NCBI GenBank assembly: GCA_035593725.1
Contig: DAOSZN010000008.1
Span: forward strand, 10,052-74,051
Length of the DNA stretch: 64,000 bases
Source of the DNA: Bacillota bacterium
GTDB lineage: Bacteria > Bacillota > SHA-98 > UBA4971
Reading direction: 5' to 3'
Of this stretch, positions 36,930 through 49,925 are shown one piece after another. Both the position numbers and the translations under genes were made by a program. How positions within the stretch are numbered: position 1 is the first letter of the stretch; every line of letters starts with the position of its first letter. The notes under the pieces were generated by a model. That model was not told where the DNA came from. It was given only the letters and a program-made list of their open reading frames with translations, and did not search any database.

Positions 36930-38075
36930 TCATTTGCTTATTCCTTCGAAAAGCGCTTTCGCCTCCTTGAGGTGGTGAGTAATGGGCAAGTGTTGAGGGC
37001 ATAGGTCTTCGCACTTCTTGCACTCGATGCAAGCTTCAGGGTCTGCATTTACCTTTTTCAGGTACTCATAGTTTTCGCGGAATGAATCCTTTGCCCCGTA
37101 TGCGAAGAAGTCATTACAGAGCGAGAAAACATCGGGAATAGCCACATTATTAGGGCAGGGGACACAGTAGTTGCATTCAGTGCACGGTATCTTGATACGA
37201 TCTTTATATATGGATTTTACTTGAGCAAAGAGATGGAAATCATCATCAGTTAGGGAATTTGGCCGGGCATCATTAGCTATACGGACGTTCTCCATGACTT
37301 GGTCCATAGAACTCATGCCACTGAGGACGCAAGAGACCTCAGGATGATTCCATACCCATCTGAGCCCCCATTCAGCAGGGCTTCGTTTGACCTTTGCCTG
37401 ATCCCATACAGCCTGCACATCGCGAGGCACGTTCTTTGTAAGTTTCCCGCCACGGAGAGGTTCCATGATTACGACACCGAGACCTTTTGAAGCTGCGTAC
37501 TTCATACCGGAAAGGCCTGCCTGGTAGTAATCATCCACATAGTTCAAATGAATCAATGTAAGTGTCCACTCATATGCATCGACAATCTCGCGGAACACGT
37601 CAAAAGTGTCATGGAATGAAAACCCTATATGCCTAATCAGACCTCGGGTACGAGCATTATCCATACAGTCTAAGACCTTTAGCTTTTTCGCTTTATCCCA
37701 AAGTTCCTTATTCAGGGAGTGCAAGAGATAGAAGTCTATATAGTGAGTTCTTAGTCTCTCCAACTGCTCAGACAAATACTTGTCAAAATCACGGGGGGAC
37801 TCCAAGAGCCAGACAGGACACTTCGTAGTAAGGAAGACTTTTTCGCGGTATCCGTCTGCCAAGGCCTTCCCCACAGCAATCTCTCCTTGGCGACCATGAT
37901 AGTTGTACGCTGTGTCTATGTAGTTTACACCATTATCAATGGCGTATCGAATCATGCGGCAAGCTTCGCTTTCATTGACACCGGCATCACCGTTCTTTGA
38001 TACAGGCAGTCTCATGCAACCGAATCCCAAGGCTGAGACACTAAGACCTGAGTTGCCTAATTCCCTATATTGCAC
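36930..38075 (-). CDS. Aldo/keto reductase with C-terminal 4Fe-4S dicluster domain
   Basis: LGFGCMRLP, NYIDTAYNY, YIDFYLLH, IMEPLRGG; CTECNYCVPCP and CIECKKCEDLCP; GTG 38075 after GGAGGG. Confidence 0.9.
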   Translation of the reverse strand: MQYRELGNSGLSVSALGFGCMRLPVSKNGDAGVNESEACRMIRYAIDNGVNYIDTAYNYHGRQGEIAVGKALADGYREKVFLTTKCPVWLLESPRDFDKYLSEQLERLRTHYIDFYLLHSLNKELWDKAKKLKVLDCMDNARTRGLIRHIGFSFHDTFDVFREIVDAYEWTLTLIHLNYVDDYYQAGLSGMKYAASKGLGVVIMEPLRGGKLTKNVPRDVQAVWDQAKVKRSPAEWGLRWVWNHPEVSCVLSGMSSMDQVMENVRIANDARPNSLTDDDFHLFAQVKSIYKDRIKIPCTECNYCVPCPNNVAIPDVFSLCNDFFAYGAKDSFRENYEYLKKVNADPEACIECKKCEDLCPQHLPITHHLKEAKALFEGISK

Positions 38076-38091
38076 AGTTATCCCTCCATCT

Positions 38092-39477
38092 CTAAGGTTC
38101 AGTCTGAACAGGGACACCGTAAGGCCCGTCTTTTAGGAAAGCGATAGAAGGTTCGCGTCCCATCGCTTTATATTTCCTTACTGCTTCAGCCACTGCAAGC
38201 TCCACCATGTCCTTTACATCATCAAGATTCCCGGAATAACGGCGATCGGCAGAAAGGAGCAGGTTACCGTCAGCGCCCGGCAGAATCGCTGCATCTTCTT
38301 GAGAAATATGCGGCGCGCAATACGTAAAGTTTTCCATAGGGATTCTGGCAAACACCTTTGACCACATTTGCACCTGCCATTGCTCAGGGATGAAGTTCCA
38401 GTCCTCGCTTGTTATAAGGCGCATGTAATTCCTCGCGCCGTTTAGTGTCAGCAAGTGAATAAGAGTGCGATAGTAGGCGCTTCCCACAGGATCCTTGTCC
38501 ACGTTATTGGCAGCCATTATCAGGTTTGCCCCGGGCTTCAGGGCCGGTATGGCTACCACCCCGGCCTTAGCTGCTTGGTAGTGATTGATTCCGACAAATC
38601 CCGCATGGGTCACGACAATGTCGTATGCCTGATCTAACGATATAGTCACATATTCGCGTATTCTCTCTACAGCTTTAATGTGCGCAGCCTCGAGATCCCC
38701 GGCGTAGACTCCTGTAAGCCTGAACTCATCATCTAAAGTCACATTGACAATGAAATCGACCCCGGCCATCTTCGCGATTTCAACGGCTTCTTCATGGCAA
38801 GGGTTTCCGTCAAGGACCAGGTCAGAAGAGCAAGGCGATGAAAGAAACTCCGGTCCATGGAATATGTAGGTGCTATCCTCTCCGATGAGGCCAGGGCAAA
38901 CCGCTTTTCTGCCTCCGGAGGCTCCGGCCATGAAGTGACTTTCAACGAGACCGGTGAGGATTCTTATGTCAGATTCAACATATAACTTATTGATGAAGAC
39001 CTTCGTTCCGCGGGAGGTGACACCTAGGAACCGGAGATTAGATTCATCCCTGCAATCATGGCACACAATCGTTATTGATCTTTCGAACACGGAAGGATCA
39101 AGCATAGCTTCGAGTTCATCTTGGGAGAGTTCTCTATGGGTGCCTGTAGCGACAATGATTGTTATATGCCGAGGGTTTACTCCAAATTCAATCAGAGCGT
39201 CGATTATTGGGGAGAGGATTCCTGAATCCCCGGTATACGGTACCGGCCGAGTATTATCAGATATTACTACCGCAGCAGTTAAGTCTCGGGCGGGTTTTCC
39301 TTTTCCTATGATAATCTCTGAAAGCCCGGGGGATCCTATAGGGCTGCTTATGGCTTTAAGAATCGCGTCTTTCGGGTCAGCAATTGGTGTGGGTTTCGAC
39401 ATCGCAAGACAGTGAGTTCCTTCAGGCAACCGGATTTCAACGGCTTGACCTCCAAATCCCATGGAGAATTTCGGCAT
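38092..39477 (-). CDS. LarA-family (DUF2088) nickel-pincer-nucleotide-dependent racemase/epimerase homolog
   Basis: SDNTRPVP, VATGTHR, ESHFMAGASGGRKAVCPG, GLIG...FHG, LDGNPCHEE; ATG 39477 after GAGGTG. Confidence 0.88.
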   Translation of the reverse strand: MPKFSMGFGGQAVEIRLPEGTHCLAMSKPTPIADPKDAILKAISSPIGSPGLSEIIIGKGKPARDLTAAVVISDNTRPVPYTGDSGILSPIIDALIEFGVNPRHITIIVATGTHRELSQDELEAMLDPSVFERSITIVCHDCRDESNLRFLGVTSRGTKVFINKLYVESDIRILTGLVESHFMAGASGGRKAVCPGLIGEDSTYIFHGPEFLSSPCSSDLVLDGNPCHEEAVEIAKMAGVDFIVNVTLDDEFRLTGVYAGDLEAAHIKAVERIREYVTISLDQAYDIVVTHAGFVGINHYQAAKAGVVAIPALKPGANLIMAANNVDKDPVGSAYYRTLIHLLTLNGARNYMRLITSEDWNFIPEQWQVQMWSKVFARIPMENFTYCAPHISQEDAAILPGADGNLLLSADRRYSGNLDDVKDMVELAVAEAVRKYKAMGREPSIAFLKDGPYGVPVQTEP

Positions 39478-39682
39478 GCGTAAACACCTCATATTGCTAT
39501 AGATTATGGGAAATATAACAGAATATGATACTGCTATATTATAACATACTCTTACAGGCGTATCCTACGACCGCATTTCCTTGATGTTTGGCCTGTTCCT
39601 CATAGAGGCTTTATGCGAGACAACATCCGGTGAGGAAGAGGTTCAGCAAGGGAGGGGCATATACACTGATGACAGAGAAACC

Positions 39683-39718
39683 GGAGTAATCCCTTCGGAT
39701 TTGAACAGAGATTACTCC
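39683..39718 (-). terminator. Probable terminator after the sugar ABC operon
   Basis: GGAGTAATC ... GATTACTCC 9-bp inverted repeat just past the ATPase stop. Confidence 0.55.
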
Positions 39719-39747
39719 GTCTCGTTTCCCTCGATTATGCTTAGGTG

Positions 39748-40551
39748 TCATGTGGCAGTGTTCTTTAAACTTCTTCTGTCGCCTTCAATACCATGGACAA
39801 TTATGTCCATCAGTTCTTCAACACTGGTGTCTTCTTTACGGAAATCTCCCACTTTTTGTCCGTGTTCTAGCACGACTATTTTATCAGCTACAGGGTACAC
39901 GTGATACAAGTTGTGGGTTATGAAGATAACTGCAAGACCACGGTTCCTGGCTTCATTAATATAGCTTAAGACTTTATTTGTCTCATGTACTGACAGGGCG
40001 GAAGTAGGTTCATCAAGGATAAGAAGCTTTCCGCCGAAGTGCATCGTTCTGCCGATTGCGATTGCTTGACGTTCCCCACCGGAGAGGGTGGATACTTCTT
40101 GGTGAGCTGTTCTCACAGTGATCCCAATATCCTTAAGCATTTCTTCGGTGTCTTCGCGCATTTTGTGAGTATCAAGTAAATTGAATGGGCCTATTCTCTT
40201 TCGTGGTTCTGCGCCGAGAAAGAAATTCCTGGCGATACTCATGGTTTCGACAAGGGCCAGATCCTGGTACACAGTTTCAATTCCCAGTTTTCTGGCGTCC
40301 CTGGGTGAATCAAGCTCGACTTTGCGTCCTTCGAACCGGAGTTCACCTGAGTCAGGTTTGTAAACACCTGATAGGATTTTGATGAGCGTGGATTTGCCGG
40401 CGCCGTTATCACCTACCAATCCAACAACTTCTCCGCGTTCAAGCGTGATATCCACATCCTTCAAAGCTGCTACACGACCGAACCACTTGCACAGCTTCTT
40501 TCCTTCCATGACCGGCGTATCGCTTGGATGTGATCTCGCTACTTGCTCCAT
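39748..40551 (-). CDS. Monosaccharide/polyol ABC transporter ATP-binding protein (single NBD)
   Basis: GDNGAGKSTLIK, GIETVYQDLAL, LSGGERQAIAI, ILDEPTSAL. Confidence 0.92.
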   Translation of the reverse strand: MEQVARSHPSDTPVMEGKKLCKWFGRVAALKDVDITLERGEVVGLVGDNGAGKSTLIKILSGVYKPDSGELRFEGRKVELDSPRDARKLGIETVYQDLALVETMSIARNFFLGAEPRKRIGPFNLLDTHKMREDTEEMLKDIGITVRTAHQEVSTLSGGERQAIAIGRTMHFGGKLLILDEPTSALSVHETNKVLSYINEARNRGLAVIFITHNLYHVYPVADKIVVLEHGQKVGDFRKEDTSVEELMDIIVHGIEGDRRSLKNTAT

Positions 40552-41573
40552 GAGATCACCTCCCCAAGCATGACATTGAGGGCAACGGCAGCTACGACAA
40601 TGAATCCGACGAAGGACATGTACCAGTATGCAGGAGCGCCAATCATGACAAGCCCGATTCTGATAGATGCCATGGTAATCGCGCCGAGCATAGTTCCGAG
40701 TATGCTCCCGACTCCTCCGTTTAGCGAGTTGCCGCCAATGACTGACGCTGCGATGGCCTCAAGTGCAAGGTCCTGACCCCATACAGGCGACATAGAACCC
40801 ATTCTCCCTAATTGAAAACAACCGCCGAGGCCGGCCAAAAGGCCGATGAGAGTAAAGTTTATCAACTTGACTTTAACGTCAGGCACTCCCAAAGCCCGGG
40901 CAGCCCCGCGCTTGCCCCCGGTCGCAAACACCCAGTTCCCGTAGGGAGTTTTCTGGAGTATTATCCAGAATAAAACCCCGATAGCAAGCCACCATATTGC
41001 TGAGATGTGAACTGTGGATACGATCCTGTCTCCCCCTAACCATCCAAGCAGCGGAATATTCTCAAAAATACTGATTGGCCAGCCTTGGGTCAGGTAAAGC
41101 GCGACCCCTCTCCAGAACATCATTGCGCCTAAGGTTGTAATGAACGATGGTATCCTTGCGTACAAGGTGACTAATCCATTCAAAGCGCCTATGCCGGCTG
41201 AACATGATATTGCGAAGATAAAGGCCAAGATCGGGTTCCAGTTTTGCTTTGTGATAAGCATGGCAAGGATCATGCCGCCCAGCGCGAAGTTTGATCCTAC
41301 AGACAGGTCCATTTCTCCTGAAATCATGAGGAAGCTGGCTCCGACAGCGACAACTCCAAGCTCTGCAGCGATTGTCACGATATCTCCAAGTGTGCCCGGA
41401 TTCAGGAATTCCCTCTTCATAGAGAAGAATACGCTGAATACGACGATCAGGGCACAAGCAACGCCTACTTCGCGATGATGCAATAAGGCTTTCCAAAAAG
41501 AGGGTTTTTGAGACTTCTCAGAATCCGGCACGGTACAGGATTGAGATATAGGCGAGGACCCTTTTTCATCCAT
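40539..41573 (-). CDS. Monosaccharide/polyol ABC transporter permease (RbsC type)
   Basis: SGEMDLSVGS, IPSFITTLG, FATGG..GAARALGVP, LEAIAASVIGGNSLNGGVGS. Confidence 0.92.
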   Translation of the reverse strand: MDEKGSSPISQSCTVPDSEKSQKPSFWKALLHHREVGVACALIVVFSVFFSMKREFLNPGTLGDIVTIAAELGVVAVGASFLMISGEMDLSVGSNFALGGMILAMLITKQNWNPILAFIFAISCSAGIGALNGLVTLYARIPSFITTLGAMMFWRGVALYLTQGWPISIFENIPLLGWLGGDRIVSTVHISAIWWLAIGVLFWIILQKTPYGNWVFATGGKRGAARALGVPDVKVKLINFTLIGLLAGLGGCFQLGRMGSMSPVWGQDLALEAIAASVIGGNSLNGGVGSILGTMLGAITMASIRIGLVMIGAPAYWYMSFVGFIVVAAVALNVMLGEVISWSK

Positions 41574-41601
41574 TACGCTCCCTCCTTTATGCCAATCCGA
41601 G

Positions 41602-41631
41602 ACGTGGGTGGGGGATATCCCCCACCCACGT
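41602..41631. repeat. Perfect 30-bp palindrome between binding-protein and permease genes
   Basis: ACGTGGGTGGGGGAT|ATCCCCCACCCACGT, no mismatch, no spacer. Confidence 0.85.
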
Positions 41632-41653
41632 AAAGTGTAATACCTACTGCTGT

Positions 41654-42619
41654 TTATCTGTAACCTTGCTTCACAAGGATTTCGACAACATCTGCAGTCT
41701 CTTGAGTAATGAATCCTCGCCCTGTGTCGTAATCAGCCGGGTCAAGTTTGAATTTAGCATTCAGATACAGTTCTACGACAGCCATGAATCCCTGCAGGTA
41801 CTGTTGCTGATCCACGGTTCCTTCGCAGATTCCGTCTTTAATTGCTTGAATTGTGTTAGGTTCCAAGTCAAAAGAGGCAAACAGGATTTTCCCTTTGAGT
41901 CCGTCGTCTCTTATCATCTTGATTGTGGGAATCGCACCGAGAGGCCCTACTGTAAAGATTGCAGCAGTGTCAGGATTTGCCTTAAGATAGCTCCTCAGGA
42001 TACCAATTGCCTGAGTGGCATCTTGGGTTATGTCCAGCTTATCTACTTTACCGCCAAGTTCAGCGGTGATAACATCTGAGATTCCTTTTGCCCTCGCTTC
42101 GAGGCCCACGTGTCCGGCTTGGTGGATTGCAACTACTACCTTGGCGCCTTTCTTAAGCTTCGGCATGAGCTTATAAGCCACCATTTTGCCTGCTTCGTAC
42201 TCATCCATACCGATGTAAGCCATATAGGGAATGGTTCCCTTGTGCTCTTCAGGTTCTTTACAGTTTATGGCCACCACGGGGATACCCCGACTTCTGGCTT
42301 CCTTAATCGGCTCAACCCATGCCCTGGCGTCACTTATGGATGTAGCAATACCATCAGCTTTAGCTGCCATGGCTGCGTTAAACATATTAACTTGTTCCGG
42401 CACATTGTATCCGGCAGGTCCCTGGAAGATTGCTTTTACGCCAAGGGCTTTCCCTGCGTCCTGAACTCCCCTTTGAACGACAGCCCAGAATGGGTCACCG
42501 GGACCTGTATGGGCAATTACGTAGAAAGTCATGTCATCAGCAGCGGATACAGCAGTCGAGATTCCACCGAGAGTCAATGCCAGAGACAACACAAGAATTA
42601 ACCCAACCAATCGTTTCAT
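41654..42619 (-). CDS. Monosaccharide/polyol ABC substrate-binding protein (RbsB-like fold)
   Basis: Signal peptide; AHTGPGDPFWAVVQRG, YIGMDEYEAG, LEARAKG, DQQQYLQG; ATG 42619 after GGAGGG. Confidence 0.9.
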   Translation of the reverse strand: MKRLVGLILVLSLALTLGGISTAVSAADDMTFYVIAHTGPGDPFWAVVQRGVQDAGKALGVKAIFQGPAGYNVPEQVNMFNAAMAAKADGIATSISDARAWVEPIKEARSRGIPVVAINCKEPEEHKGTIPYMAYIGMDEYEAGKMVAYKLMPKLKKGAKVVVAIHQAGHVGLEARAKGISDVITAELGGKVDKLDITQDATQAIGILRSYLKANPDTAAIFTVGPLGAIPTIKMIRDDGLKGKILFASFDLEPNTIQAIKDGICEGTVDQQQYLQGFMAVVELYLNAKFKLDPADYDTGRGFITQETADVVEILVKQGYR

Positions 42620-42980
42620 TAACAAGCCCTCCTTAATTCTTTAGGTCTGTGTTGATGTGGTTCCGGAGCTTCTCTCAATCCACTAAGCGCCCTAAAGCTC
42701 TGTTTGGCTGATTAGCCCTCCCTTCAGAGTAGACTCGCTGTGTATCGTCTAATTATCGACGTGGAGAGCGTGAGGCAGGTATTGTATTTGACTGAGGTCC
42801 ACCGGTTTTTTTAATGGGCTTGCGGTTGAAGCTGGATCATCTGCAGCGTCTTTGGCATATTGCATGAGTTGACTTTTTGTCTTTCATACTACCACATAAT
42901 GTTTAAACGCAGTTACTCCGAGTGATGACAATGTACACCCGCCACTTAAGCAAAGTCCTGTCTACATCCTAACCCTTGTA

Positions 42981-43787
42981 CTATCGGTAACTAATAATAG
43001 GTGAAATGTATTCAAATACTTTCTTAAAGGCAGTCTTATAATCAGGCATGTGCATTATTTCAGCTGAAAGATATCCTTCATATTCTATATCCTTCAGCGT
43101 ATTGATAACTTTCCGGAAATCAAAGCATCCGAAGCCAGGCGCCCATCTTGTGTTGTCCGCTATATGAACATGCCAAATACGGTCACCGGCCTTGTAAATC
43201 GGTTCAGTGAGACTTGATTCCTCAATGTTCATATGAAAAGTGTCTATCAGAAGACCGACATTATCATCCAGTTGAGACGCAATGGAATATGCGTCCTCTA
43301 TCGTATTGAATAAATCAATCTCATAGCGGTTGATAGGTTCCAGGAGTATCCTGACATTCTTTTGTTTAGCATAGGCTGATACTTCAGAGAGTCCGCTTTT
43401 TATATGGTTGACTGCTTCATCATATGAAAGCCCGTCTGACATCTTTCCTCGTATGAGTCCTACGATTACGTCAGCTTCAAGGACTGCCCCTAAATCGACA
43501 TGAGCCTTCAGCCGCTCTATGGCTTTTGCTCTACGCGTCTCATCCGGATGAGCCAGGCTAAGGCCTTCTTTGTACGCAGCTCCGGTTCCAAGTGCAGGCA
43601 CTTTCAGCTCATACGATTCCAGCAGTTGCGTAACTTGAGCCGCATCAATATCCGAGGGATCAGCTATCGCAAGCTCAACCCCGGTAAATCCTATATCTGC
43701 AGCAAGATTGACAGCCTCTTTGAGAGGTATGTCAGCTGCAAGGGATGTCGCGTTCGGAGTTGCGTTAACTACGATGGAAAGCTTCAT
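42981..43787 (-). CDS. Sugar-phosphate isomerase/epimerase TIM barrel, IolO (TM0416, 5-keto-L-gluconate epimerase)-like
   Basis: GVELA, ALGTG, IVGLIRG, LEPINRYE, DTFHMNIEE, HVHIADNTRWAPGFG, SAE. Confidence 0.8.
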   Translation of the reverse strand: MKLSIVVNATPNATSLAADIPLKEAVNLAADIGFTGVELAIADPSDIDAAQVTQLLESYELKVPALGTGAAYKEGLSLAHPDETRRAKAIERLKAHVDLGAVLEADVIVGLIRGKMSDGLSYDEAVNHIKSGLSEVSAYAKQKNVRILLEPINRYEIDLFNTIEDAYSIASQLDDNVGLLIDTFHMNIEESSLTEPIYKAGDRIWHVHIADNTRWAPGFGCFDFRKVINTLKDIEYEGYLSAEIMHMPDYKTAFKKVFEYISPIISYR

Positions 43788-47307: not shown

Positions 47308-49821
47308 TTACTCAGCCGGCTTCCATATCACAATTGAGTCTATTACTTTATTTGTTCCGTCGTCGGCTCCTTCCCATCCATGCAAGTGTCCAACGTCTTT
47401 CTCAATGGCCTGTATATACAAGTGATCAGGGGTTACGTCTACTTTCATATAGTGGAATACAGGATGAGTGGACGCGCTCTCTCCTTTATCCGGGTCATTC
47501 TTCCTAAATGCAAGCCAAGAGCTGTCCCCAACTTCTGATATGGGATACAAATCTCTGTTCTGTGCTCCGGCACCTGCTGAAGTGATAAATATTGTCCCTT
47601 TGTTTTGAGTTGCCTGTCCAAATCTTCCGGAGCCTTCTTCCGCGTATGCGTTTTCCAGTTTATAGTACTGAGCTTCCTGTAAATCTCCTACGAGTTTTGA
47701 GCGGTAGCCTCTTATGTTCTTCGTGCGTTCATAGTTATGATCGTGGGCAGTAAATACAACATCAACTATTCCTGATTCATCAATAATATCTACGAAATCG
47801 CCTTCTCGCATCAGACCTGCGACTTCTAAAACGTCATTCATATGACCTGTGCTAGTGGTATATATTGAATGATGTAATAGCACGATTACCCAGTCAATTT
47901 CTCCTGATTCCTTCGCCTTTTTCGCTTTCGCCAGATCGTTTTTCAGCCATTCAAGTTGTAGATTGTGGAATTCTTGATTTGGAAAACCTGACATGAACGC
48001 TACAACATGAACATTCCCATAGTTGAATGAGTACCAGTATTCTTCATATCCCTGATTATTAAGGTAAGGCCAATCCTCCATGGAGTTTACGGGGAAGTTG
48101 AACATGTTCCACCATGTAGGCGCCAATCTTTCATGATTCCCATGCACATGGACCATGGGATATCTGGCCAGTAATTCTTTGCTGTTAGATTTACCGCCTA
48201 CTCCGTAATTAAACCACGCGTCATATTCAATGAAAGCTCCGTTGCCTCCATAGTCACCTGTAAATGCTGTAAAGCCCGGAGCTCCGCACTTGGCGTTGTC
48301 ATCAAGAATTTGTAATATATCCTCATTCAGGTGATTGAATACGTCGTATTGAGCTTTTGAATCCCCGTACACGATAAAAGTAAAGTTATCAGGGTTTTCC
48401 GGGTTTGTTTTGATAGTATGTATTTCAGATTTTATCAGGTTTTCTCCCTTGCTCTCAGCGTAGTATTCATACCAAGTATCGGGTTTCAAATCCTCTAAGA
48501 CAACATTGTATGCATGAGCTTCAGTGGTGCCCATAGAAAACTGGACCGGTTTCTGTCTTATTTCTCGGAATCTCTCTTCACCTTTTTCTCTAAGATACAC
48601 TGCTCCTTCATTGGAAGAAGTGTTTGCCAGCCAGTTAATTGATATGGTCTGTTGTTTTCCGGTGATTCTATCCGGATCAGGCCAGGTAATGTTTATATTC
48701 ATTTTGTCGCCTTTGATGGACTTCAGTTCTCCGGGCTGCATTACCACATTATCTACTAACGGGCGGTATTCAACTACATAAGGATAATGCATTCTAAAAC
48801 CGAACTTATTATCCTCTTCCGTGCCCCATGAATAACCGTAAGTTATCCAAATGCTATCTCCGTAGGTAGCGACAGCATGCTTTTGCGTGCCGAAGGGTAA
48901 GTCAGATTTTCTTACAAAGCTGTCGGTTTCAGGGGTGTATTCATATACAGTGGGAAGAAACTCGCCCATGTTTCTTCCTCCGATTATGTACGCTTTACCC
49001 CTAACCGCTGCTACAAACGGACTATCGGTAGGCTCAGGCAGATCGCTCAGTCTCTTCCATTGAGAGCCTTTAGGAGCGTTCGGGTCAAAGACGCAGGCCA
49101 TCTTACTGGCCTCACCTTCTTCATCTTCACCGATGTCATCAGACAGCGATACTCCACCGCCAAAAATATAGAACTTATTATCAATCACAACTCCGGAGTA
49201 ACCATAGTCTACTAAGGACGCAGGAGGCACTTGGTGATCTATGCTATCCAGCTGTATGAATTTCTCGATCACAGGATCAAAGACCGAAACAAGTCCGTCC
49301 TCGCCTAGTAGAACAACGTATTCTTTCCCGGTAATGGACATTATTCCCCAAGAGCCCGTATTCCAGTTTCCGAGCACTCCGATATCTTCCATTTTGGCTA
49401 TTTCCAGTTTTTCTATATCGAACTTGAGCAACCTGTTCTTCGCTGCAATATATATGTATGGACTCTCATCACTGGTTCTAAAGGCTGTGGCTTTATAAAA
49501 ATCTTTGCCTGTGCCGACATTTGTATACCCTTTTTCCCCGGTTTTAAGGTTAATCCATTCTATATTTGGGAAATCTACGAAGTCCTCAATTCCGTCTTGT
49601 CCCCATCCTAGGTAATGAGAATAGTAAGCTCTCCCGCTTGTGACCCACATTACATCTCCAATTACCGTGTTGCTGTGGCCCCTTCTGGGATGTATCAAGT
49701 TTTCGTGTATTATCATGATTGGGGTTTCGTCTTGTGCTAACGCAATTCCAGTACAAGTCCCGACTAGCAACGTAAGGAGCATCACGAGCACAATGGCTAA
49801 AGATACGTTTCTCCTTCTCAT
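47308..49821 (-). CDS. Secreted Kelch-repeat + FN3-like + metallophosphoesterase (purple-acid-phosphatase-like) fusion
   Basis: Signal MRRRNVSLAIVLVMLLTLLVGTCTGIALA; Kelch blades (..NKFYIFGG, WKRLSDLP, ..GKAYIIGG, ..DSIWITYG); HAYNVVLEDLKPDTWYEY; motifs YGDS, TGD, GNHE, LLHH, AHDHNYER; ATG 49821. Confidence 0.85.
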   Translation of the reverse strand: MRRRNVSLAIVLVMLLTLLVGTCTGIALAQDETPIMIIHENLIHPRRGHSNTVIGDVMWVTSGRAYYSHYLGWGQDGIEDFVDFPNIEWINLKTGEKGYTNVGTGKDFYKATAFRTSDESPYIYIAAKNRLLKFDIEKLEIAKMEDIGVLGNWNTGSWGIMSITGKEYVVLLGEDGLVSVFDPVIEKFIQLDSIDHQVPPASLVDYGYSGVVIDNKFYIFGGGVSLSDDIGEDEEGEASKMACVFDPNAPKGSQWKRLSDLPEPTDSPFVAAVRGKAYIIGGRNMGEFLPTVYEYTPETDSFVRKSDLPFGTQKHAVATYGDSIWITYGYSWGTEEDNKFGFRMHYPYVVEYRPLVDNVVMQPGELKSIKGDKMNINITWPDPDRITGKQQTISINWLANTSSNEGAVYLREKGEERFREIRQKPVQFSMGTTEAHAYNVVLEDLKPDTWYEYYAESKGENLIKSEIHTIKTNPENPDNFTFIVYGDSKAQYDVFNHLNEDILQILDDNAKCGAPGFTAFTGDYGGNGAFIEYDAWFNYGVGGKSNSKELLARYPMVHVHGNHERLAPTWWNMFNFPVNSMEDWPYLNNQGYEEYWYSFNYGNVHVVAFMSGFPNQEFHNLQLEWLKNDLAKAKKAKESGEIDWVIVLLHHSIYTTSTGHMNDVLEVAGLMREGDFVDIIDESGIVDVVFTAHDHNYERTKNIRGYRSKLVGDLQEAQYYKLENAYAEEGSGRFGQATQNKGTIFITSAGAGAQNRDLYPISEVGDSSWLAFRKNDPDKGESASTHPVFHYMKVDVTPDHLYIQAIEKDVGHLHGWEGADDGTNKVIDSIVIWKPAE

Positions 49822-49925
49822 GAATGTACACCGTCCCTTTAACATAATAAATGCCTCAAGAATCAGGCCTTTGGGCCTCAAGTGAATTTACCGGTTCTGA
49901 AGAACTCTCCCTTCTTCCTAAAGGC

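Follow-up and report, generated by a model that had tools for sequence, protein, structure and literature searches.

Gene organization of the locus

The window analysed here is a stretch of 64,000 nt from contig DAOSZN010000008.1 of an uncultured anaerobic Bacillota bacterium, whose assembly (GCA_035593725.1) is a metagenome-assembled genome (MAG) of 2.40 Mb in 71 contigs with a completeness of 94.9%. It contains a gene for a LarA-family protein followed by a gene for an aldo-keto reductase (AKR) with an iron-sulfur domain, and both lie on the same strand downstream of a sugar ABC operon and an IolO-like gene (Table 1). This position had been described in an earlier note on this DNA, and it turned out that the synteny is conserved in related genomes.

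Table 1. Features of the LarA-reductase locus (positions in the window)
Feature	Position	Strand	Evidence
Aldo-keto reductase with C-terminal 2x[4Fe-4S] ferredoxin-like domain, 381 aa	36930..38075	-	Pfam, family alignment, model
LarA-family (nickel-pincer type) 2-hydroxy-acid racemase homolog, 461 aa	38092..39477	-	Pfam, solved relatives, model, residue mapping
Extended -10 promoter-like element TGTTATAAT, 61 nt 5' of the LarA ATG	39538..39546	-	Read from sequence; putative function
Strong hairpin right after the ABC ATPase stop	39674..39724	-	Sequence; RNA fold of spacer
CUT2-type sugar/polyol ABC importer	39748..42625	-	Pfam and NCBIfam
ABC ATPase	39748-40551	-	Pfam/NCBIfam
ABC permease	40539-41573	-	Pfam/NCBIfam
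ABC binding protein; nearest model is rhizopine binding protein, below that model's cut-off	41654-42625	-	Pfam/NCBIfam
IolO-like xylose-isomerase-fold epimerase/isomerase	42981..43787	-	NF041099, 294.1 bits vs cut-off 300

The raw Open Reading Frames (ORFs) of the two genes on the minus strand span 38092..39492 and 36930..38117. According to homolog alignments and ribosome-binding sites, the true start of the LarA homolog is the ATG at 39477 (MPKF...), with GAGGTG 7 nt upstream, and that of the reductase is the GTG at 38075 (MQYRELG...), with GGAGGG upstream. The LarA stop codon TAG occupies 38092-38094, which leaves a gap of exactly 16 nt and agrees with the two-gene unit described earlier. 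The reductase has its own ribosome-binding site, no promoter or terminator signal was found in the gap by sequence inspection and promoter scan, and the two genes are predicted to be co-transcribed. Upstream of LarA, the extended -10 reported in the earlier note is present on the minus strand as TGTTATAAT, which a simple -35/-10 scan did not list because it has no good -35. The 270-nt spacer between the ATPase gene and LarA has an RNA fold with z = -3.1, and its hairpin, which lacks a clean U-run, is at most a weak terminator or an RNA-stabilising stem. A riboswitch in this leader (e.g. for nickel or cobalt) was considered and rejected, as Rfam gave nothing but a chance miRNA match.

Family, fold and residues of the LarA homolog

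By its sequence, the product of the first gene is identified as a LarA-superfamily protein with every catalytic and cofactor residue. It matched the Pfam domain Lar_N (PF09861; 3e-47, 160.9 bits vs cut-off 23.3), and the closest solved sequences are 9eid and 9eia (2.5e-64). The fold neighbours of its model (pLDDT 90) are lactate racemases with TM scores of 0.82-0.89, with that of Isosphaera pallida on top (0.82/0.89 to 9eia), while GntE2 (4nar) reaches 0.60. Residues His114, His181, Lys191 and His207 align to His108, His174, Lys184 and His200 of L. plantarum LarA, and Arg77, Tyr300, Gln301 and Lys304 align to Arg75, Tyr294, Gln295 and Lys298, which bind the carboxylate and 2-OH groups. All the LarA catalytic and cofactor motifs quoted in the earlier note are thus present and could be aligned to LarA residues.

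The protein belongs to a widespread, uncharacterised subfamily of about 460 aa with thousands of database matches, found in Bacillota, Spirochaetota, Atribacterota, Aminicenantes, Bacteroidota and Desulfobacterota-type MAGs, and we found no characterised member of it in the literature on LarA homologs. Of the 78 subfamily members for which residues were counted, 77-78 share the catalytic, cofactor and carboxylate-binding residues. The score against the lactate racemase equivalog model NF033504 (262.8 bits) is below the cut-off of 460, so the protein is no ordinary lactate racemase ortholog. It is also below the cut-offs of both malate racemase (LarAH5/6) models (234.6 vs 500 and 216.4 vs 462), and has Gln at the position of LarA T359, which is Lys in malate racemases. 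The hexonate epimerase model NF052594 is not among its NCBIfam matches. The gene is under purifying selection, with dN/dS of 0.11-0.17 among congeners and 0.13 among the copies of the sister genus.

Compared with known systems, the best match in sequence and fold is the LarA of I. pallida (LarAH2/SAR; 9EIA, 9EID, 9EIF), a short-chain aliphatic 2-hydroxy-acid racemase. Both proteins have the carboxylate/2-OH ligands, the catalytic His pair, the tethering Lys and the Ni-binding His, and three of the four pocket residues (M, W, Q) are identical. However, identity amounts to only about 32-40%, Phe stands in place of Leu at the first pocket position, as it does in L. plantarum LarA, and the gene context is another one. 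The protein here also has some 35 extra residues and a conserved tail at its C-terminus (...DGPYG(I/V)PV). L. plantarum LarA (5HUQ/6C1W) shares the fold, the catalytic and cofactor residues and the pocket pattern F,x,W,E/Q, but differs by having Phe176 where the protein here has Met, and by its setting, since larB, larC, larE, a lactate channel and a nickel ECF transporter are all missing from the present genome and the NF033504 score is below cut-off.

The aldo-keto reductase partner

The second gene product matched Aldo_ket_red (PF00248; 4e-38, 131.5 bits) and Fer4_9 (4e-7, 30.4 bits), together with Fer4_17 and Fer4_8. In the family alignment, the catalytic tetrad of the TIM barrel, D54, Y59, K85 and H119, is invariant, and so are all eight Cys of the two clusters (CxxCxxCxxCP and CxxCxxCxxxCP). 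The top folds for its model (pLDDT 89.7) are NAD(P)H-dependent AKRs, in a Foldseek PDB copy that ran to April 2026 and from which 9YEB was perhaps absent. The canonical nicotinamide Asn is replaced by Phe (S153-F154-H155, in G-F-S-F-H-D) throughout the AKR-Fer4 family, in which the His is invariant, and the canonical Gln is replaced by Leu174 in the clade of this reductase only.

Conservation of the locus and the gene pair

To place the locus, we compared 17 genomes, namely the source genome, 7 congeners and 9 genomes of the sister genus; every kin genome is a MAG, and the sample takes in genomes that are 96-98% complete and one congener MAG in 10 contigs. A survey of the whole class was uninformative, as no more than 17 class genomes reach a completeness of at least 90%. 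Neighbourhoods in the subfamily were counted over 80 species loci.

In the source genus the gene order is binding protein, permease, ATPase, LarA and AKR, while in the sister genus it is IolO-like gene, binding protein, permease, ATPase, Fe-ADH and LarA. The ABC orthologs (72-92% identity) adjoin the LarA homolog in the same order in both genera, and in the sister genus these ABC genes have IolO-like homologs (58-60% identity) on their 5' side. Five genomes of the genus retain the LarA-reductase pair, with identities as low as 76-78%. A general partnership of LarA and the reductase was rejected, as the reductase adjoins LarA in only one of the 80 species loci, which comes from the same genus. 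The pairing proposed in the earlier note is therefore real as to its 16-nt spacing and predicted co-transcription, but it is genus-specific and not a feature of the subfamily. The reductase family is mostly stand-alone elsewhere, which counts against functional coupling, the case for which consists of this spacing and the five genomes of one genus.

Directly upstream of LarA, an Fe-ADH gene is found in the sister genus and in 41 of the 80 species loci. Its ortholog (71% identity to that of the sister genus) is still in the source genome, alone on contig C26, so there was no clean swap of Fe-ADH for the reductase, although a swap in function may have taken place. In a term search of the 2020 genomic-context supplement, no LarAH group with Fe-ADH (about 427 aa) or transketolase was found; the terms transketolase, COG1454, COG1979 and COG0371 did not occur there, and the sole "alcohol dehydrogenase" entries were short-chain COG1028.

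Substrate of the LarA homolog

The side-chain pocket of the LarA homolog consists of F182, M183, W367 and Q368 (LarA positions 175, 176, 358 and 359). These residues are common to most of the subfamily, with F in 76, M in 74 and W in 77 of the 78 members, and Q in 41 or E in 35 at the last position. The published pocket rule for lactate racemases is F,F,W,E/Q and the signature of gluconate epimerases is E,V,A,H (PMC11770544), while LarA_Ip has L174, M175, W356 and Q357 (PMC11851776). The pocket matches the lactate signature at three of four positions, and its Met is that of the I. pallida short-chain racemase. Judged by these residues, the substrates are most likely lactate-sized hydroxy acids and not sugar acids, with the reservation that pocket rules are heuristics and that, by the authors' own statement, their models left some specificities unexplained (PMC11770544).

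Besides, the genome encodes two further LarA homologs. The one on C67 passes a malate racemase cut-off with a score of 526, and the one on C64 passes NF052594 (634.9 vs 500). The latter, a putative hexonate epimerase, sits among genes for UxaE, 6PGDH, a gluconokinase-type kinase and an SDR, which form a tagaturonate-type operon; the hexuronate and inositol routes of Thermotoga contain IolO and UxaE. As these two homologs are of the malate and the putative hexonate type, the 461-aa protein is the only lactate-type candidate.

The gene context gives a mixed picture. In the Acetobacterium woodii-type lct operon, genes for a GntR regulator, EtfB, EtfA, an FAD lactate dehydrogenase and a permease occur together with a LarA racemase. 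The source genome has the GntR-EtfB-EtfA-FAD-oxidase part of such an operon, and in one MAG a 71%-identical LarA ortholog lies directly 3' of EtfB-EtfA-FAD-oxidase genes, which are 68-77% identical to those of the source genome. Unlike in the lct operon, however, the racemase homolog here stands outside the Etf operon, with an ABC importer and the reductase, and LctD-type neighbours were seen in 2 subfamily loci only. The usual neighbours in the subfamily, namely Fe-ADH, split transketolase (13-15 loci), PfkB kinases, xylose-isomerase-fold genes and ABC or TRAP transporters of the sugar type, indicate carbohydrate catabolism instead of lactate use, which counts against lactate as the substrate.

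Cofactor supply

In agreement with the earlier note, larB, larC and larE are not in the window, and the profile search detected none of them above cut-off anywhere in the assembly. Among the genomes of the genus and the sister genus, LarB, LarC and LarE are above cut-off in 0 of 17, while Lar_N genes exist in 17 of 17. We also looked for diverged copies. Both a hidden LarE and a hidden LarB were rejected: the PP-loop ORF that scores best (on C20) is TtcA-like, and no AIRC domain occurs anywhere in the assembly; PurE, which is present in kin, is missing from the source assembly as well. The same absence was observed in a closed 4.3-Mb Spirochaetia chromosome, which carries eight Lar_N genes and in which larB, larC and larE were all not found. 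With the same searches, larBCE turn up in six further genomes from the phylum sample, as well as in Iocasia and Oceanispirochaeta, and LarC in Cerasicoccus, the only one of the three tested there. One family member does have larBCE, with larE, larC and larB on a 3.6-kb contig. A CbiM-type nickel transporter, which is uninformative alone, was not found in the source genome, and neither was a lactate channel.

The earlier note had regarded a genome without NPN biosynthesis genes as a refutation of its reading, and the larBCE search found none here. The purifying selection on the LarA homolog indicates that the gene is in use, so the absence of larBCE becomes a question of cofactor supply and not the end of function. 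The absence of larBCE in lineages that bear LarA suggests cofactor uptake or a biosynthetic route of a new kind. Tentatively, and at somewhat less than even odds, we propose that NPN, or a precursor late in its synthesis, is a common resource, and that lineages without LarB, LarE and LarC import NPN from neighbours or use an undiscovered pathway. Import of a cofactor from neighbouring microbes occurs for corrinoids; our literature search found no paper on salvage, auxotrophy, exchange or alternative biosynthesis of NPN.

Alternative explanations

In the earlier note, the LarA homolog was taken for a 2-epimerase of C5-C6 sugar acids acting on the IolO-like product, with keto-acid reduction by the reductase. 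The synteny with the IolO-like gene and the sugar-type importer in two genera is in favor of this, as are the sugar kinases, transketolase and xylose-isomerase-fold genes in which the subfamily neighbourhoods are rich, and LarAH10 still epimerises gluconate with an atypical pocket (PMC11770544). The GntE D-gluconate 2-epimerases (Thermotoga maritima TM0442, 4NAR; NF052594) also belong to the same superfamily and carry out the same kind of C2 inversion. However, the pocket here is F,M,W,Q instead of E,V,A,H, keeping the bulky Trp where gluconate epimerases have Ala, the GntE2 structure is distant (TM 0.60) compared with the lactate racemases (0.8-0.9), and NF052594 gives no match, whereas the C64 paralog passes it at 635 bits in its UxaE/6PGDH/kinase operon and is the true GntE-group member of this genome. 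The sugar-acid guess was thus not borne out and we regard it as improbable; as to its second part, a possible step after IolO on a tagaturonate-type product, the tagaturonate-to-gluconate step is covered by the C64 paralog. An accidental adjacency of the two genes, with an independent reductase (e.g. in carbonyl detoxification) and a LarA that serves the ABC/IolO-like locus or the distant Lct-like genes, would explain why most reductase homologs are monocistronic and lie in unrelated contexts, why the sister-genus ortholog is on other contigs and why the copy of one congener has an in-frame TAG. The shortness of the gap, the ribosome-binding site in it, the lack of promoter or terminator signals between the genes, and the retention of the pair over five diverged genomes make it unlikely. 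It is far less probable still that the reductase, too, is nickel-pincer-dependent in the manner of NphT (9YEB, an AKR-fold hydride transferase), in which case both genes would need the cofactor. The reductase has the AKR fold, lacks the canonical Asn (and, in its clade, the Gln) and carries an invariant His after the Ser, a candidate counterpart of NphT H144. In 40% of LarC-linked AKRs this His occurs without the Lys (PMC13524815). Against it, 9yeb ranks just 12th by sequence and 26th by profile, the AKR-Fer4 alignment offers H155 as the candidate His but no invariant Lys to match NphT K200, many LarC-less genomes contain the family while two with LarC do not, no lar genes adjoin the three homologs examined, the closest folds are those of NAD(P)H enzymes, and the 2x[4Fe-4S] domain is absent from NphT.

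As for the cofactor, the larBCE genes might be present in the organism and missing from the assemblies, so that the supply would be ordinary. The incompleteness of the source genome, its 71 contigs and its lack of PurE are consistent with such a loss, and the 3.6-kb contig with larE, larC and larB in the family member is of the kind that bins lose. We consider this doubtful, as the genes are absent in all 17 genomes of two genera, including the 96-98% complete ones and the 10-contig congener MAG, and likewise from the closed Spirochaetia chromosome with its eight Lar_N genes, although the same searches readily detect larBCE in other genomes. That the LarA homolog is a decaying relic, inactive for want of cofactor, would fit the lack of larBCE in the lineage, but is scarcely credible in view of the low dN/dS in both genera, the intact reading frames, the retention of all functional residues and the three LarA types kept in coherent operons.

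Proposed function and significance

With a probability of roughly 0.55, we favor an NPN-type LarA for a small 2-hydroxy acid with a linked reductase, the LarA cofactor coming from outside the known larBCE route. The LarA homolog would invert C2 of its substrate, most likely lactate, by proton-coupled hydride transfer; other possible substrates are glycerate, 2-hydroxybutyrate or a dihydroxybutyrate. The reductase, with its two [4Fe-4S] clusters, probably produces or uses up the corresponding carbonyl compound. Together they would form the distal part of a conserved locus of IolO-like isomerase, sugar-type ABC importer, oxidoreductase and LarA, in which the racemase may deliver the enantiomer accepted by a stereospecific dehydrogenase, such as the Etf-coupled LctD-like enzyme encoded elsewhere in the genome. 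The cofactor would not come from the known LarB/LarE/LarC route in this lineage, but would be taken up or made by unknown genes.

In conclusion, a substrate assignment would annotate a recurrent carbohydrate-linked module in anaerobes, and the 17 related genomes, together with a closed genome that has eight LarA homologs and no known NPN pathway, provide a testable case for NPN exchange or alternative biosynthesis.

LarA-reductase unit and its surroundings

On the minus strand of the window, the ORF call gives two ORFs which span the LarA homolog, with a Lar_N domain (3e-47), and the reductase, with an aldo-keto reductase (AKR) domain (4e-38) and two ferredoxin-type Cys clusters. The mapped starts and the TAG stop leave a gap of 16 nt, bearing out the earlier note; the pair is a real two-gene unit. 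The extended -10 proposed there could also be read; the consensus -35/-10 scan did not list it because it has no good -35. The 270-nt spacer between the upstream ABC ATPase gene and the LarA homolog opens with a strong hairpin that lacks a U-run, and no Rfam family matched the spacer.

Positions of the features and residues discussed
Feature	Position	Strand	Basis or remark
LarA homolog, start	ATG 39477; 461 aa	-	homolog alignment and ribosome-binding site
LarA homolog, stop	TAG 38092-38094	-	
Reductase, start	GTG 38075; 381 aa	-	homolog alignment and ribosome-binding site
Promoter-like element TGTTATAAT	39546..39538	-	61 nt before LarA homolog start
LarA homolog, catalytic	His114, His181		mapping to 5HUQ/9EID
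LarA homolog, tethering	Lys191		mapping to 5HUQ/9EID
LarA homolog, Ni-binding	His207		mapping to 5HUQ/9EID
LarA homolog, carboxylate and hydroxyl ligands	Arg77, Tyr300, Gln301, Lys304		mapping to 5HUQ/9EID
C67 LarA homolog	C67:8780-10051 (L099)		malate-racemase equivalog, 526 bits vs cut-off 500
C64 LarA homolog	C64:9187-10488 (L100)		NCBIfam "nickel-dependent putative hexonate epimerase", 635 vs cut-off 500
GntR(FCD), EtfB, EtfA, FAD-oxidase	C3:78955-83024 (L116:4955-9028)		window's own genome (G000)

The LarA-reductase pairing is limited to this genus (G000, G002, G003 with locus L019, G005 and G007), where the order is binding protein, permease, ATPase, LarA, reductase. Four sister-genus genomes carry an IolO-like gene, about 3 kb, binding protein (85% identical), permease, ATPase, an iron-alcohol-dehydrogenase-family gene (Fe-ADH) and LarA. 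The link to the ABC operon and the IolO-like gene, pointed out previously from the sequence, is therefore conserved synteny. The oxidoreductase adjoining LarA changes, being the reductase here and Fe-ADH in the sister genus. A clean replacement is ruled out, because a Fe-ADH ortholog (71% identical) still stands alone on contig C26 of G000. The LarA homolog is linked with a locus for sugar-type uptake, to which the Fe-S aldo-keto reductase is added in this genus.

In G005:C85 (L111; DGZL01000052), only decayed fragments are left of the ABC genes upstream of the pair, and an in-frame TAG occurs in the reductase ortholog, with the LarA gene intact. Besides, the window encodes an 857-aa protein (47308-49881, minus strand) in which Kelch repeats are joined to purple-acid-phosphatase N and metallophosphoesterase domains; its gene has an ABC importer on one side and PfkB and xylose-isomerase-fold genes on the other.

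Subfamily and recurrent neighbours

Database searches with the LarA homolog gave thousands of matches, within which a tight group of about 460 aa comes from Bacillota, Spirochaetota, Atribacterota, Aminicenantes, Bacteroidota and Desulfobacterota-type MAGs, as well as Iocasia and Cerasicoccus. A Fe-ADH gene of about 427 aa recurs in the 80 species-representative loci, immediately upstream of LarA and on its strand; clustering found it in 39 of 77 loci and tblastn in 41 of 80. A split transketolase (13-15 loci) and a GntR/FCD regulator often precede it. Further neighbours are PfkB kinases, DUF6305 and genes of the xylose-isomerase fold. This Fe-ADH passes no equivalog cut-off, scoring highest (about 100 bits) against the ErcA and lactaldehyde reductase models, and term searches of a 2020 genomic-context supplement found mention of neither transketolase nor iron-containing ADH. 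A recurrent variant in Aminicenantes and "Eubacteriales" MAGs (L078, L080, L083, L086 and others) has the order c11 (554 aa), EIIA-like, PfkB, Fe-ADH, LarA, DUF6305 and a 430-aa protein without Pfam match.

Predicted specificity of the LarA homolog

The catalytic and cofactor residues, noticed earlier as motifs, were confirmed by mapping onto 5HUQ and 9EID. They are kept in 77-78 of 78 subfamily sequences, so placing the protein in the LarA family is safe. It falls far under every curated NCBIfam equivalog cut-off (LarA, malate racemases, LarAH10, LarAH14-16), with 263 against 460 for LarA. Among solved structures, the short-chain lactate racemase of Isosphaera pallida is closest (2.5e-64), followed by the lactate racemases of Thermoanaerobacterium and L. 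plantarum. The AlphaFold model (pLDDT 90) is closest to lactate racemases, with TM 0.82/0.89 for 9EIA and about 0.8 for the others; TM is 0.68-0.70 for malate racemase and 0.60 for GntE2 (4NAR).

Four pocket positions are used in publications to read LarA-family specificity (PMC11770544; PMC11851776). Here they are F182, M183, W367 and Q368, compared with F,F,W,E/Q in lactate racemases and L,M,W,Q in the I. pallida enzyme; in malate racemases the last of the four is Lys. Across the subfamily (78 sequences, 43-100% identity) they are F in 76, M in 74, W in 77 and Q in 41 or E in 35. Judged by the pocket, a small 2-hydroxy acid is a more probable substrate than a hexonate. We consider the protein a new, uncharacterised LarA-family member, most likely a lactate-type short-chain 2-hydroxy-acid racemase (probability about 0.55).

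The earlier note had proposed a sugar-acid 2-epimerase coupled to keto-acid reduction, possibly acting after IolO on a tagaturonate-type product. This is unlikely, since the pocket differs from E,V,A,H of gluconate epimerases and points away from hexonate, and since the tagaturonate-type step already belongs to another homolog in G000. Two further LarA genes occur there. The one on C67 adjoins genes for a PrpR-type sigma-54 activator and a TctC/TctA tripartite tricarboxylate transporter. The one on C64 holds that step, in an operon (L100:6140-12861) of SDR, FGGY kinase, LarA, 6-phosphogluconate dehydrogenase and UxaE, which we take to be the Thermotoga-type tagaturonate-to-gluconate (hexuronate) route. 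This Thermotoga-type operon thus occurs in a Bacillota MAG without larBCE matches.

As for the lactate-type reading, one ortholog (L010; 71% identity) lies after EtfB-EtfA-FAD-oxidase genes instead of Fe-ADH, a layout known from lactate-utilisation operons. The C3 genes of G000 are 68-77% identical to the GntR-EtfB-EtfA-FAD-oxidase genes of that locus and resemble an electron-confurcating lactate dehydrogenase operon, but no permease or racemase adjoins them. They likely encode a stereospecific lactate-type dehydrogenase, which a racemase could feed.

The reductase was also examined as a nickel-pincer AKR of NphT type, because AKR-fold enzymes binding this cofactor by a His/Lys motif were described in 2026 (PMC13524815). 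This is unsupported: NphT (9YEB) is no close relative (ranks 12 and 26), the reductase family has no conserved Lys, the family's distribution across genomes does not track LarC, and the fold matches are ordinary NAD(P)H enzymes. Members of this large family keep the AKR tetrad; most of their genes are monocistronic and stand in unrelated contexts. In alignment A2, G-F-S-F-H-D is invariant across the whole AKR-Fer4 family, in contrast to the canonical G-x-S-N nicotinamide contact, and the canonical Gln is Leu in the reductase's clade. Cofactor binding in this family, a widespread clostridial one, may depart from the textbook mode.

Cofactor genes

We searched for genes of nickel-pincer nucleotide (NPN) synthesis with models for LarB (NF033503), LarC (PF01969) and LarE (TIGR00268). 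The window lacks larB/C/E, as first read, and the genome-wide check that the earlier note called for found none above cut-off in G000 (94.9% complete). The best LarE-like ORF is TtcA-like, and a hidden LarE was rejected. The G000 assembly as a whole gave no AIRC/PurE domain, against a PurE-type match in 7/7 congeners; either PurE lies in the missing 5%, or de novo purine synthesis was lost in the species.

Of the 30 relatives covered, all genomes of this genus (7/7) and the sister genus (9/9) have 1-6 Lar_N genes, with LarB, LarC or LarE above cut-off in 0/7 and 0/9; one of the congeners is a MAG of 10 contigs, apparently long-read. In six other genomes of the sample, larB, larC and larE occur together. 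A caveat is that all these kin genomes are MAGs and that the single family member with larBCE has them on a 3.6-kb contig. The cleanest "orphan LarA" case among the genomes examined is G032, a Spirochaetia MAG with a closed 4.3-Mb chromosome (OY782041; L041), which has a subfamily member and eight Lar_N genes and no LarB (nor any PurE-type match), LarC or LarE. Oceanispirochaeta differs in having larC, larE and larB, at a distance of 17 kb from the subfamily gene. Our literature search found no paper linking the nickel-pincer cofactor with salvage or auxotrophy.

What stands out most is that the search did not find the known NPN cofactor pathway in any genome of the lineage (this genus and the sister genus). 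Where larBCE are missing, purifying selection acts on the LarA gene (dN/dS 0.11-0.17 within this genus; 0.13 in the sister genus).
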